Part shown: positions 966 to 57,999 of the stretch, piece by piece
Position numbering within the stretch: the stretch's first letter is position 1
How the letters are laid out: every line of letters starts with the position of its first letter
Assembly (NCBI GenBank): GCA_964016885.1
Contig: OZ024747.1
Location: 80,414,001 to 80,478,000, forward strand
DNA: 64,000 nucleotides
Reading direction: 5' to 3'
DNA from: Eledone cirrhosa
Lineage: Eukaryota
Position numbers and translations under genes: made by a program
The notes under the pieces: model-generated
What the model was told of the DNA's origin: nothing
Seen by the model: only the letters and a program-made list of their open reading frames with translations
Database searches by the model: none

Positions 966-3900
966 ATGGCTGTGTTGAGAATAGGTTGTCTAAATGCGCG
1001 TGGCCTGAGCTCACCTTAGAAGCAAACAATGCTTCTAAATGACCTCAGGTCACGATGTATAAATGTGATGGTTATTTGCGAGGCCCGGATCAGCAGCGTG
1101 CGACAGCTGGCCCCCACCTTTGATGACTTTGAGATGCACGCATCTCTCTGTCAGCCCGGAGGTGGGGGTGGGGTTGTCGTTCTCCTGCAAAATCATCTGG
1201 GTCTCGTTACACAGACGGTACACTTGGACTCGGAGGGTCGACTAGTAGTTCTGGACATTGGCAGTGGTGAAAGAGGAGTTTTTAGGCTTGTCGCCGTCTA
1301 CGGCCCTTTTGGGTCAACGCGGCCGGACTTATTCCATCATCTGGAGACTTTTCTAGGGACCTCCCGCTCCTTGCTTTTAGTGGGAGACTGGAATGGTATC
1401 CTAGATGCACGTTGGGACTATGTAGGGGCATGTCCTGATACAGGGGGTTGTAACAGCCTCAAGGGGTTAATCGGCCGATTCGACCTGGCCGATAGATATC
1501 GACTAGATTTTCCGACTCTGCCAACCTGGACTTGGAGAAACCACACGGTCAATCTAGATCGTACCTAGATAGGTTCTTAGTTAGAAATAAGGATAGGGAC
1601 TTTTTAAGTTGTCCAAAAATGCTCATGGTTGGCTATTCAGACCACAAGTTAGTGACCTCCATGGTCAACCTTGATAGAACGCATAGACAGGGACCCGGTT
1701 ACTGGAAGCTCAACTTGTCCTTACCGGCAAGTAAAGCTTACAGGAACCGGATTAGTACATTAGTTAAGGAGCGGTTGACGGGCGCCATCGTCAACAGCAG
1801 GTGGTGGGGCTCTCTCAAAAGAGAGATTAGAGTAGCTTCAATAGGAGTTAGTAAGGAGTTAGCGTCAGATAGAAATAGGAAGGAAAGGGAGTTGGTAGAT
1901 AGTGTAGAAGAGGCAATTAGAAGCGGCGACGTAGCCAGAGTTCTAGCGTCGAGAACGGCCTTGGGCCAGTTCTTCAACGCGAAACACGAAGGCTGCGTTG
2001 TCCGAAGCAAAATACGTGCTCTGGGAAATGAGGGGACCAAAGCTGTTAGCTGGGCCCGCGTGACAGAAGCCAAGAGTGGGACTAGATCCACTATCCGGTC
2101 TTTGCGAGACCAGGATGGACGGGTGATCCTTGAACCTAAGCAGATGTGCGAGGCCTTTCAAAGGCACTTTGCCCGATTGTTCTGAAGGGACGAGGGGCCG
2201 GATGGGGATGTGGACCTCGGTCCATACCTCGACGGTCTGCCGTGTCTTTCGGACGAGGAGGCGAAGTCCTGCGAGAGGCCGATCTCAGCTGCTGAAATAG
2301 GGGACGTGCTGAGCCAATGCGGCAGACGCAAATCTCCGGGCCTCGATGGTCTTCCATACGAACTGTATTTAAGTATGCCGGACTTGTTCTTCGATCTCCT
2401 CGAAGCGGTCTACTGACACTGACAACAGAACGGCAGAATTCCCTGTTCTGTGACCAAGGGCGTAGTCTCTCTAGTGAGGAGGGGCGAGAACAAGGGGGAT
2501 GAAAAAAGTAATTTTAGGCCAATAACATTGCTAAATGCAGAGTTAAAGATTTTGGCCAAGGAGTTAGCAAAGAGGTTGGCGCTTGTCGAGGGCAACCTGG
2601 TGGGAGTGCGCAGATATGCGCCATCCCGTCCAGGTCCATTCACGACAACCTCCATCTCATGCGATACATCATAGAGAGGGTTGGGAACGAACCCGGCTTT
2701 GGTGGGGCCCTGATCAACTTGGATCAATCTAAGGGGTTCGATAAGGTCGACCAACGTTACCTGGATGCAGTGCTAGTGGCGGCAGGTTTCGGACCCGTTT
2801 TCAGGGGCTGGATCACCGGGACAAGTCAGTCGGTTTGCAACTCGGCGAGTGGAGGGGCAAACCGATGGCCTCCAACGGCGTCATCGGACGTTGGACGTAG
2901 GGCCCGGTGAAGTTGCTCGGGGTCTGGTTCGGGCCAGACCTCCAGGTGGAGAAGAACTGGGGTGAGGTATCGAACAGGGTGTTTGCGCTGACGCGGAAGT
3001 GGGCTGAGTACAAACTATCCCTGAAAGGCCGGGCGGATGTGGCGAACGCTTATATAGCGTCCGTCATCTATTACCGCCTGACCGTCGTGCCTTTCCCAAA
3101 GGAAACGCTCACCAAAATGGAGCGCGCACTCTTCCAATTCCTTTGGAAGAAGCGGGCTCCTTTGGTGAGGAGATCCATCTGCTGTCAACACCCTTCGAAA
3201 GGAGAGCTGCGGATGCCGTGGCTGTTGATACGTAAACACGCATTAAGGCTACGGTACCTCCAGGTATTCCTCACCGGTCAACCGGTGTGGGCCCCGTTTG
3301 TGAGGCGAGCCTTCCCGAGACTCATCTCGCTCACCGAGCTGCAGTCCTGGGTCAAGCAAAGACCGAGAAAACTGGGCGCCTGGCACACCGAGTGTGCCCA
3401 GGCGCTCACGGCTCTCTGGCAGGCGGACCCGGCTATCGGTGGAGACTCCACCTCGTCATTCTATAGAGGGCTGGTGGTTAGTAGGTGCGACCGCGCCCTC
3501 GGACAAGCCCTAGGCATGGAGGAAGACGAACTGGCCAGCCTATTCGGGAGGACATTTGGCCCAGGACCTATGGATAACTTCCAGAAGTCCCTGGCCTGGC
3601 AGTGCTACCGAGAGGCGCTGCCCGTTCGAGAAAAGCTCTACAGACACGGGCGCCCGGGTAGGGACCCCTCGAAAAAATCTGTCCTAGATGCGTGCGCGAC
3701 GAGGACACCGTTGCGCACGCATTGGTACACTGCTCGGGCGTTGCCGATCTGTGGGGCTATGTCGAACGACTGCTGTCACGGGTGGGACCAATCCGGTTGA
3801 CCACTGAGTCCATTGTAACGATCAAGCCGCCCCCCCCTTTCAAAAATGAAGGAGAGGCGGTCTTCTTCTGTGTAATAGCCATGGTGAAAGAGGTGGTATG

Positions 3901-4180
3901 GTGGACACGTTTGAAAGGGCTGAGGTCGGACACCTTTCTCTCCGGCCAACAACTGGTCCTTTTCTTTAAATACCATTTTAAGAGAAGGCTCAGAATGGAG
4001 AGAGAGGTCCTCTACCCCAGCAAGTTTTATGAAAGGTGGGTGAAAGTAGCCAGAATGGGCCGTGTGAAAGGGCCTTCTCTCTTTATCAGCCTAGCGGTGG
4101 AAAGGTGCAAGTGCAAAGGAGCACCCTCTCTCTGTTCTCCTAGGGAAAAGTGTTGCACACTTTTTCGGGGGTGTGTGTAA
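966..4180 (+). pseudogene. ORF2 (APE endonuclease, reverse transcriptase, Cys-rich domain) disrupted by stops, frameshifts and an internal deletion
   Basis: ATG 966 MAVLRIGCLNARGL (TAG 1017-1019); GDWN, SYLDRFLV, SDH (APE); KSPGLDGLPYELY, NFRPITLLNAELKILAK, DQSKGFDKVD (RT); KLLGVWF; ICPRCVRDEDTVAHALVHC near 3676-3733. Confidence 0.92.
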
Positions 4181-4320
4181 CCCCCAAAACGCCTCCTCCC
4201 TATTGAGGACTGTATTGTTAATTTTATATTTGTTATTTGTTTTTTACTCGTTCCTTTATGTAAACTCCCCCCTTGTATTTGTCCCCTTGTTTTGTGCCCC
4301 TGTGGCTAATAAATAGAAAC

Positions 4321-53273: not shown

Positions 53274-53393
<120 letters not shown>

Positions 53394-54865
53394 GGAATAC
53401 TGTTGGCTTCTTGCTAAAATACTTTCTATACCTTTCATTTATCTGTTAGAACACGAAAAGTGTGAAACAACAGAATGTTCACTTTTCGTGTTCTAACATA
53501 TATGCCTAGCTTCTCTAAAAATTTTTCGGGGATAGCCGTGGTGGTGGTGATCGTATGTCATTAGATAATTTTCAACCAATCAGAGTACCTCTCTCTATAT
53601 CTCTTCCACTGTTACTTACGCCTGTTTCTCTCTATCTGTTCCGTCTCTATTTATATCTCTTACTCTTTCGCTTTGCACTCCTCCCCTTCAATACCATCTC
53701 TCCCCCTCTCTATATATTTGTTACTCTATCGCTGCACGCTCCTCTCCTTCAATATATCAATTACACACGCTTTACACTCCTTTATCCCCAGCGCCCCTAT
53801 ATATACACCCCCCTCTCCCGCATCTATATTTTAATGTACCGTTGCACCGTGAATATATGTGTCTATATATATATATATACATATATATTGTATATACACA
53901 TTCATGTATGTGTATACACATTCATGTATGTGTATACACACTCATGTATGTATATACACTGGTTTTATGTGTGTATTGTAAATTTGTACTGTTAAAACAC
54001 GAAACTAACATTCGATTGACACTTTGATTACCTGTACAGGCAATAGTTATTAGAATGCTGTTGAAGTGTGTATATATTTTTGGGGGACATCCTGTATATA
54101 CACACATTATATATAATACAATAAACAGATAAATACACACATATATATATGAGCTTATTTAATTATAAATATTGTGAATTTTTAACTCAGTTCAATTATA
54201 TATATAAATAGCTTCTACAGGACTAGAACTGTTTCATTCGAAAGAAATCATCATAATATTGAGAGGGGGGACTAGATAAAATATTTCAAATCAAATGTGT
54301 ATAAGTTATAAGTTAAAATGTATAAATAGAGACGATAGTGGAGGTATATCTGTTTAGTGGAACAGTAGACGATAGAATTAAATACAGACGAGAATCTCCC
54401 TTTAATGAAACAGCAGACGATAGAATTAAGGCAATTTAAATTTTAAGCATTTGCATTTTTGCCTTTCATCGTTACGGGGTCGATAAAATAAAGTACCAGT
54501 AATACACTGTCACTAGACGACTTTCAAATTGAATTGTTGGTTCCATTTCTTTAGTATTTTCAATTGTAGTTATCTACTTAAAAAGCGTTACACGGTTAGA
54601 GACATAATTCGTAAGTTATATCTTCCCTATTAAACCATTGCATTATTTCGCCTACAATAGAACAAAAATGAAATGTTCTTTAAAGAAACAGGAATATAAC
54701 TTTATAAAAAAAAAAGTTGCATCCGCTTCTTTTATCATTGATAATTTTTTCGTTTTAATATTAATTGTTTTTTGTAGTTGTTTATATTAAAAATCTTACT
54801 GTAATATTTACTTAAACGAAGGCAGACATCTAAACTTATAGATTAATCTTGAGCGAAGGACTAGA

Positions 54866-55622: not shown

Positions 55623-56173
55623 AATGTGCAATAAGAGCAAAATATAACGACATTGCTCAATTATTTTATCTAATGTTGTAATAACACAAGGAAATGTTGT
55701 TTGTGTATTTTTTTTTATATTTGCTCATAGGCTTTTACAATTTCGCTCAGCCAACAACTATTAAAAAGTGAGTTGCTTAAGATAACAATTTAATCACAAA
55801 TTGTTGCTATCTTTTAATACACTCCAACAAGTCATCAAATTATGTACAATAAAAACAAATCTTATTAATTTGCTCAGGGAATATAAAGAAAATGTATATA
55901 CACTGATAATTGCAATTGTATGTAAATATTTTGTTTTTGTATTGTATATTTTATGTTTTCTATTATGTATAATATATTGATTTAATATTGATTGTTTTTT
56001 GTAGTTGTTTATATTAAAAGTCTGAAAATATTTTTATACATCTTACACTAATATTTATAAGATAATTTATAATAACAATTACATAATCTAATTACATTAC
56101 AACGATAATTTATTATTAATATATATCCTGTTTAACTAGAGTTATTACAAGCGTTGCCTTAAAAAAATATTAA

Positions 56174-57130
56174 ACTAGACATGAAAAATGCGCAAGCTCA
56201 AAAGTGCCACAGAATGTTATAATAAACCTTCAAAAGTGTGGGACTAGAGTTGTTGCTAAAAAATATTGTAATCATTATATATCGTACATTCTGTGGCATC
56301 CTTTATAAAAATAGCTTAAACCAACGAAGCCTTTATTTTTACGCTATTTCACTTAGTTAATTCTTAGAGTGTAACATATAAAAATAAATACATCTATGTT
56401 TAATGTAATAACAGCTATAAATAATTACGTAATATTATTATCATATACTCATAGTAACAAAATAATTGTGTTGAAACTTAATATGATGCTTATATGAACG
56501 ATCAAATCTATAATGATAATTTCTTAAATATACTAATAGTAAACTAATTTAGTTATCTATTGTTACATTTTCATAGAACTATAATATTAACAATCGTATT
56601 GCATTATCAAATTTTTATCACTACAAACTTTCATATTGGAATTACCTTAAGCCACTTATTATTACTTCGCTTTCGTACTTTTACAGCTGTAGATATTGCG
56701 CTGTATCTTATATCTAATATCAATATCTCGTGGTAATTTGCATGAAGTGTAAAATAGGTTTATTAATAACTTTAATATGAAATGTATTATACAGGGCTGC
56801 GGAGTCGGCCAAAAATTGACTGGCTCCAACTCAGGATCCGATACTCCATTATTTCCTAAATTTCAGCTCCGCAGCTCTGTTATTATATTAATTAATTTAT
56901 TTTATAGTTGTAAATCATATTTTTATATGTTACACTCTAAGAATTAACTAAGTGAAATAGCGTAAAAATAAAGGCTTCGTTGGTTTAAGCTATTTTTATA
57001 AAGGATGCCACAGAATGTACGATATATAATGATTACAATATTTTTTAGCAACAACTCTAGTCCCACACTTTTGAAGGTTTATTATAACATTCTGTGGCAC
57101 TTTTGAGCTTGCGCATTTTTCATGTCTAGT
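56174..57130. repeat. Perfect 213-bp inverted repeat with 531-bp spacer and CTAGT-terminated ends
   Basis: 56174-56386 equals the reverse complement of 56918-57130; no mismatch found by eye. Confidence 0.95.
56792..56879. mobile_element. 88-bp hAT-like MITE
   Basis: TIR CAGGGCTGCGGAG / CTCCGCAGCTCTG; 8-bp TSD gtattata / ttattata. Confidence 0.72.
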
Positions 57131-57149
57131 ATATATATATATATATATA

Positions 57150-57979
57150 TATAAATGAGACGTATAGAGATTGTTTTAGCAAGAAGCTAACGGCATTCTA
57201 TAACATATATGCGACTATAACGTCAAGATGGGAAAAGTAGTTAACGAAAGATTTAGGAAAAATAACTCAAACTCATCTCAAAAAGAGAATCAGGATACAA
57301 ATTCATCCACAGAATTTAGTAAAATCCATGGAAAAATCAATAGACCTTTAACTCATGATAAAACAAAGTTTGAAACACTTATCCTTCAATTTGGAATAAC
57401 ATCAAATGCTCTGTATAGTCTTAAAAGACTATTTCATGAAAACTTTCAGTGGAGATGGTCACGGTTGGATATCATTCATCAGCAGAGCTCAACAGAAAAC
57501 CAGGACTCTCACAGTAATATAGTCCGAAAAAGGGAATTCTAAAACTCGCTAGTTCGCCTTCATGTGTATTTATGAAAAAGCACATGAGGAAAAAACGGGG
57601 CTAGTGGCGTCAGGATGGAAGTGAATATTTATTTACAAGAAATAGCAGTCAAATACATTCTGAAAAAAAAACTCTACAAGGAGTTCAGCAAAATAGCAAT
57701 AATTATCACAGTTTTTATGAAAAAAACCGGGATTAGTCACAGATAGTTTAAGCACTCTAGGAAAAGAATCCGAGTATAAATATAAATGAGACGTATAGAG
57801 ATTGTTTTAGCAAGAAGCTAACGACATTCTATAACATATATGCGACTATAACGTCAAGATGGGAAAAGTAGTTAACGAAAGATTTAGGAAAAATAACTCA
57901 AACTCATCTCAAAAAGAGAATCAGGATACAAATTCATCCACAGAATTTAGTAAAATCCATGGAAAAATCAATAGACCTT
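57150..57979 (-). mobile_element. Retrozyme-like element: 631-bp period, about 200-bp terminal direct repeats, internal hammerhead
   Basis: 57150-57348 repeated at 57781-57979; (TA)n on both sides; HHR at 57408-57488. Confidence 0.78.
57408..57488 (-). ncRNA. Type I hammerhead ribozyme with full stem III, intact core
   Basis: GCUCUG-CUGAUGA-AUGA-(32 nt)-UCAU-GAAA-UAGUC-UUUUAA-GACUA-UA/CAGAGC. Confidence 0.8.
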
Positions 57980-57999
57980 ATATATATATATATATATAC

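Follow-up and report, generated by a model that had tools for sequence, protein, structure and literature searches.

Tandem repeats of type I hammerhead ribozymes that are expressed as circles have been published (Cervera and de la Pena 2020, PMC7229834), as has a link between retrozymes and Penelope-like elements (Li, Clavereau and Pollet 2026, 10.64898/2026.07.22.740005). In the available parts of both sources, metazoan non-LTR retrozymes consist of tandem units, each of which is non-coding, low in GC and equipped with a single type I hammerhead; they occur as monomers, dimers and multimers together with Penelope-like elements, and are proposed to follow a cycle of circle-templated reverse transcription (PMC7229834; 10.64898/2026.07.22.740005). 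Their circles measure 170-400 nt on northern blots. Eight of nine Xenopus retrozyme dimers stayed uncut in vitro (10.64898/2026.07.22.740005). Plant LTR retrozymes are described as having hammerhead circles of 600-1,000 nt with ribozymes of type III, together with fixed LTRs, PBS/PPT and target duplications of 4 bp (10.64898/2026.07.22.740005). Penelope-like elements and their non-autonomous partners, such as Neptune, Naiad and Chlamydomonas MRC1, undergo 5' truncation, form pseudo-LTRs through partial tandems and target microsatellites, in which target-site duplications are hidden; the non-autonomous partners are arranged head-to-tail (Craig et al. 2021, PMC8557442). For Poseidon from Anolis, the portions of the report at hand state that in vitro reverse transcription starts inside the RNA, at two starts that are non-homologous to the target, that AT-rich DNA is nicked, and that hammerhead cutting is dispensable, uncut RNA being used (Frangieh et al. 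2024, PMC11167929). The sole in vitro Penelope system does not depend on the ribozyme. To our knowledge, the retrozyme cycle of cutting, circularisation and Penelope-like reverse transcription has been proposed in print, with the integration step not shown.

The window analysed here, a stretch of 64,000 nucleotides from the 3.0-Gb, microsatellite-rich genome assembly of Eledone cirrhosa, contains a real, young non-LTR retrozyme insertion. It occupies positions 57152-57979 and consists of 1.31 head-to-tail copies of a 631-bp unit, bounded by two TA runs (Table 1; unit positions are written q, q1 being window position 57152). An earlier note on this DNA had described a 631-bp element, a figure that stands as the period but not as the length of the insertion, which is 828 bp. 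Its observation of near-identical terminal repeats of about 200 bp with one difference, and of TA tracts on both sides, was borne out: the direct repeats, spaced by 631, cover 57152-57348 and 57783-57979 (197 bp) and differ at a single position (G at 57193, A at 57824), growing to 205 bp with a second difference when TA-like bases in front are included. A target-site duplication was not readable at this insertion, the variable end of which lies against a (TA)n run. In both copies there is an additional A at q129 and the base at q188 is A; the former is absent from every other young-family locus checked and the latter is the sister-subfamily state, so that only q129 is private to the window array. 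The same note had placed the ribozyme in a unique middle, which is correct for this copy, but the arrangement only marks where copying stopped, and the ribozyme is repeated in other copies. Since the window locus carries a single ribozyme, release of a 631-nt monomer by itself is not expected, and the copy is likely a dead-end product.

Table 1. Features of the insertion in window coordinates (strand "." where none applies)
Feature	Position	Strand	Support in the genome or fold
(TA)n target run, fixed end (3' end of minus-strand RNA)	57130..57151	.	same TA junction at 176 genomic sites
Complete non-coding unit of 631 bp, from the first copying pass	57152..57782	-	
Small hairpin, 25-39 nt from fixed end	57176..57190	-	
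Type I hammerhead motif	57408..57488	-	full three-stem descriptor, covariation, consensus fold
Possible 4-bp pseudoknot between GUUG on the 5' side of stem I (57493-57490) and CAAC in loop II (57467-57464)	57464..57493	-	
Unit-to-unit junction, AT-rich, unpaired in consensus fold	57775..57789	-	82 exact genomic copies
Partial second unit, 197 bp ("terminal redundancy"); variable 5'-truncated end, stops short of second ribozyme	57783..57979	-	
(TA)n run, variable end	57980..57998	.	TA run at far end in 74/100 insertions

Several further features of the surrounding sequence were recorded. A 963-bp MITE-like element with near-perfect terminal inverted repeats of 216 bp (56171-57133) directly adjoins the TA run to the left of the retrozyme. 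Next to another TA run, on the minus strand at 53383-53440, lies a 5'-truncated sister-subfamily insertion of 59 bp, and LINE-like frames that are broken, judged by eye to resemble endonuclease and RT, lie on the plus strand at about 1000-4200. Within the unit, a 112-aa plus-strand ORF was rejected as coding, as it has no Pfam match and an indel in the family majority interrupts its frame; the longest ORF has no Pfam match and a frame that is not preserved in relatives. The palindrome TGACGTCA, which we take to be a CRE-like site, is present in the family majority and in most sisters and is mutated in the window copy at 57605-57612; it is possibly an internal promoter element.

Judged by its genomic features, the family of the window element is a metazoan non-LTR retrozyme and thus belongs to a class already known, its unit being non-coding, low in GC and devoid of fixed LTRs. 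At about 630 nt the unit exceeds the circles seen on northern blots for metazoan retrozymes while falling within 51-972 bp (10.64898/2026.07.22.740005), and it differs from these retrozymes in a 32-nt loop II with a possible pseudoknot. Whereas insertion ends are unmapped in the parts of the metazoan retrozyme papers at hand, the window family has a single fixed start, inserts strictly at TA and is truncated to varying extents. A fixed 3' end, variable 5' truncation and partial tandems are all present, as in a non-autonomous Penelope-like element, and microsatellite targeting is observed directly in that the insertions sit in (TA)n; unlike Penelope-like elements, however, the family is without an ORF and possesses a full rather than a minimal hammerhead. 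Two starts at sites non-homologous to the target in Poseidon contrast with one start at a TA-like site here, and the fixed LTRs and type III ribozyme of plant LTR retrozymes are absent from the window family in spite of a similar predicted circle size. A published description of the family was not found in the literature searched, supplements aside.

The minus-strand hammerhead has the architecture that had been proposed for it. Stem I comprises 6 bp (57488-57483/57413-57408) and is followed by the core CUGAUGA, stem II comprises 4 bp (57475-57472/57439-57436) and is closed by the 32-nt loop, and GAAA precedes a stem III of 7 bp (57432-57426/57421-57415) with a 4-nt loop; the triplet is AUA, and the predicted cut lies at 57414|57413 on the minus strand, i.e., q263|q262. 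Within the 64-kb window, the motif is the sole match to the full three-stem descriptor. It had also been called fully paired, and indeed 17 of 17 pairs are Watson-Crick, but this wording overstates stability: mean pair probability of stem II in the window copy is 0.09, and the hammerhead fold differs from the predicted minimum-energy fold, its energy exceeding that of the ensemble by 1.9 kcal/mol when the motif is taken alone and by 5.6 within the 631-nt circle. Predicted stability is thus marginal, with covariation favouring the fold, and cleavage without dimerisation, as envisaged earlier, would be plausible given the 7-bp stem III, although stem II is weak. Rfam hammerhead families yielded no match at the gathering threshold and none at E<=5. 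As a whole, the 631-nt minus-strand circle folds better than shuffled sequences (z -4.6, as compared to -2.9 for the plus strand; 40 shuffles each).

That the motif is not a chance occurrence follows from 1,856 genomic matches to its pattern against none for the reversed control, and from an unguided RNAalifold consensus of 23 full units that recovered a three-way junction with all three stems. Core and stems equal the majority in 98 of 118 units, and sister subfamilies that are about 80% identical have retained the hammerhead and show compensatory changes in its stem II. In an alignment of 26 sequences (the window copy and 25 of 34 distinct sequences, after removal of seven further units belonging to arrays already represented, a truncated copy and a copy carrying 2 inserted bases at the cut site), 95.7% of cells pair. 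Stems I and III barely vary and are therefore little informative, while stem II covaries across subfamilies (C-G in 19 and U-A in 7 sequences at one pair; A-U in 16, G-U in 5 and U-A in 3 at another), counts that are inflated by the relatedness of the sequences. The first pair of stem II is A-U in 9 and unpaired in 17, where the alignment has U-U; active hammerheads with a U-U base of stem II and with pseudoknots between stems I and II are known, and an A-U or U-U base has been published for axolotl (PMC3088659). Core position 7 is free among 51 distinct motifs (T in 26, C in 15, G in 10) and the remaining core positions hold, a result that is partly circular as the searches favoured intact cores. 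With regard to the putative pairing of GUUG with CAAC, all cells of the alignment are paired, with two changes from G-C to G-U, and the pairing is exact in 37 of the 51 motifs; neither the aligned relatives nor these motifs contain a compensatory change. On sequence grounds the pseudoknot is hence possible, being conserved but without covariation.

Across the genome, the exact pattern for the junction between TA run and unit and that for the junction between units gave no matches when reversed. Arrays of 2 to more than 5 units were seen, reaching 5.5, and the family is young, units deviating from the majority sequence by a median of 0.16% (110 units). A sister junction pattern has 5,098 genomic matches, internal junctions counted too, in relatives about 80% identical, and nearly all sister loci examined begin at the same point within the TA run. 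The TA run at the fixed end was also present at loci found without selecting for one. Among the first 100 of the 176 insertions, taken in listing order, length ranges from 22 to 2,315 bp with a median of 354; 64 are shorter than one unit, 36 are longer, and 18 could hold two complete ribozymes. These end positions stem from BLAST, whose alignments can run as many as about 10 bases too far into TA, and one copy ends at an assembly gap. That other genomic copies would differ in redundancy, a check the earlier note had suggested, was thereby confirmed, the range being from none to more than 5 units.

A start that is fixed and stops that vary are the hallmark of target-primed reverse transcription. 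This footprint identifies the minus strand, i.e., the strand that bears the hammerhead, as the template. The TA run at 57130..57151 likely served as the primer, and the AT-rich unit-to-unit junction is likely the internal site that pairs with it. Ends cluster at TA microhomology, with 12 of 100 at q59. In addition, of the 14 ends that lie between q18 and q58 on the first pass, 9 fall at q30-31, inside the loop of the small hairpin, which is preserved in relatives by A-U/G-U changes on the minus strand. This cluster recalls the 30-40 bp "tail" of Penelope, a matching second start having been found at one locus only, near q32-35; together with three scattered non-standard starts among 20 arrays, this speaks against a second fixed start for the young family.

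Some loci depart from the simple pattern. A few insertions form inverted pairs (L070, L167, L170, L284, L289), the partners at L284, L289, L070 and L195 lying back-to-back or facing each other; at L195, an array of the young family is joined to a sister-family copy in opposite orientation. The variable ends of L010, L047, L111, L159 and L161 contain short duplications of, or jumps in, the unit sequence, suggestive of slippage while the 5' end is joined. The locus L281 (G000:C1:82127500-82137400) is a satellite of at least 14 sister units, part of which alternates a unit with an intact ribozyme and a unit broken in core and cut site, whereas L282 has period 3 and L283 period 2. As L281 is a long, old, local satellite, its period-2 array was not counted as evidence for multimer circles.

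Taken together, we consider the insertion to be a 5'-truncated non-LTR retrozyme that a Penelope-type reverse transcriptase/endonuclease inserted into a TA microsatellite through 1.31 turns around a predicted 631-nt RNA circle, and assign this reading a probability of roughly 0.65. The 1.3 turns around a circular template proposed in the earlier note are therefore supported as the reading that agrees best with the data, although we reach it by inference. One line of evidence comes from the predicted cut site. Copying passes it 91 times and halts there a single time, the stop rate around it being the lowest in the unit, and 139 of 140 units spanning it are without an indel, one having an indel and five a single substitution. 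The template bond was consequently intact, having either never been cut or been religated. The main ground for favouring a circle is that a template never cut leaves the conservation of the ribozyme across subfamilies hard to explain.

The strongest competitor, which we regard as unlikely, keeps the same element and a Penelope-type enzyme and replaces the circle by an uncut linear tandem transcript that is primed internally, the ribozyme being slow or protein-gated and long source arrays being renewed by unequal exchange. Internal initiation on uncut RNA is precisely what the Anolis element does in vitro in the available account (PMC11167929), stem II is weak, and L170 could be a shorter copy of L004, as both units of each carry 196C. 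The explanation nevertheless requires template cutting to be close to zero (1 stop in 92 arrivals) and does not account for conservation and covariation of the ribozyme. Variant sharing is in keeping with a circle. In a comparison of 177 units drawn from 98 loci, with long arrays over-represented, variants were shared in 144 of 336 cases (43%) within arrays versus 144 of 17,973 (0.8%) between arrays, and 16 of 54 multi-unit arrays contain a variant present in all units that cover its position, many of these variants being subfamily markers found at 2-4 loci. Between arrays, units with the same index share hardly more (58/6,191, 0.9%) than other units (86/11,782, 0.7%), which speaks against copying from a linear tandem, albeit with low power. 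On the other hand, 6 of the 54 arrays are mosaic and long sister arrays exhibit higher-order repeats of period 2 and period 3, as the linear tandem transcript would allow; tandem amplification after insertion thus also occurs and can mimic shared variants.

Clearly less probable is a linear monomer cut by the ribozyme, on which the enzyme would jump from the 5' end to a 3' end and so produce tandems. Such a jump fits the array L041, where a 19-bp deletion covers the cut site in the first unit and the second unit ends at the cut site; two sister copies (L191, L207) likewise end at the cut, and a sister unit in L243 has two extra bases there. The cut site is itself TA microhomology, so that ends are expected there anyway, yet they are not piled up at this position, and the near-complete lack of indels at the cut is at odds with a jump.

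We give very little weight to a unit-length, SINE-like RNA moved by a LINE of the RTE or CR1 type, or to a satellite or rolling-circle element acting at the DNA level, with tandems arising after insertion. Although a fixed 3' end with 5' truncation is shared by all target-primed elements and local amplification of long arrays does take place, there is no pile-up at unit length, and 36 of the 38 copies that reach q600 continue into the next unit, whereby a unit-length SINE is rejected; with the exact junction in 82 places and a strand polarity that matches the ribozyme, this explanation is largely refuted. A plant-type LTR retrozyme or TRIM, which the window copy resembles in its direct repeat flanking a unique middle, is refuted by the fixed-end insertions with redundancy varying from none to several units, by the absence of TG..CA ends and by a ribozyme that is of type I instead of type III and lies outside the repeat in the window copy; with one end fixed and the other free, the repeats are not LTRs, in agreement with the earlier note.

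With regard to the enzyme, elements that combine RT and GIY-YIG are plentiful in this genome. A search for GIY-YIG domains returned 10,597 first-look candidates and 150 scored matches, and 50 loci were examined. Several matches are located at the C-terminus of RT frames and are accompanied by a cysteine linker of the sort described for Neptune in the text at hand (PMC8557442). Two open frames, 938 and 1,096 aa long, have matches to the RT family, and the former matches GIY-YIG as well. The uninterrupted 1,096-codon frame (L173:1275-4562) has an RT match and a GIY-YIG-like end, lies among TA/CA repeats and is a candidate for a recently active Penelope-like element. None of the 50 GIY-YIG loci examined (of the 10,597 candidates) shares sequence with the unit as an autonomous partner would, and the sole profile match at these loci is a 59-bp sister-family insertion in L184, about 1.8 kb from the ORF; the Penelope partner is therefore deduced from the insertion footprint alone. 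Minimal hammerhead-like cores are present in the window at 19108 (-), 46686 (-), 35984 (+) and 40151 (-). The one at 19108 matches a motif downstream of RT and GIY-YIG frames in L174, L175 and L178, and that at 46686 is similar to motifs found in L184 and L187.

Under the preferred circular reading, a source array with at least two ribozymes would be transcribed into minus-strand RNA, its hammerheads would excise a monomer, and a host ligase would close the circle. A Penelope-like GIY-YIG nuclease would then nick a TA run, the 3' end of which would pair with the unpaired, AU-rich site internal to the RNA. The enzyme would copy round the circle and halt at a variable point, often at TA microhomology, and repair would link the halted end to the second part of the split TA run.

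For the family as a whole, we put at somewhat better than even the chance that the ends and junctions of the young family record Penelope-type copying, from one internal AU-rich site, of an RNA circle of about 630 nt that has been cut by the ribozyme and religated, copying passing the cut site in 91 of 92 cases with the ribozyme maintained by selection, and that this ribozyme may use a long loop II pseudoknot missed by Rfam. As the family is young and has a single mapped start, some 180 insertions and older relatives in the thousands, integration becomes testable by counting ends and tracing variants, and the family majority unit provides a defined RNA for testing in vitro. If true, this reading would provide evidence from the genome that these parasites require cutting by the hammerhead and formation of a circle as a step of their cycle, in contrast to the autonomous enzyme acting on its own RNA in vitro.
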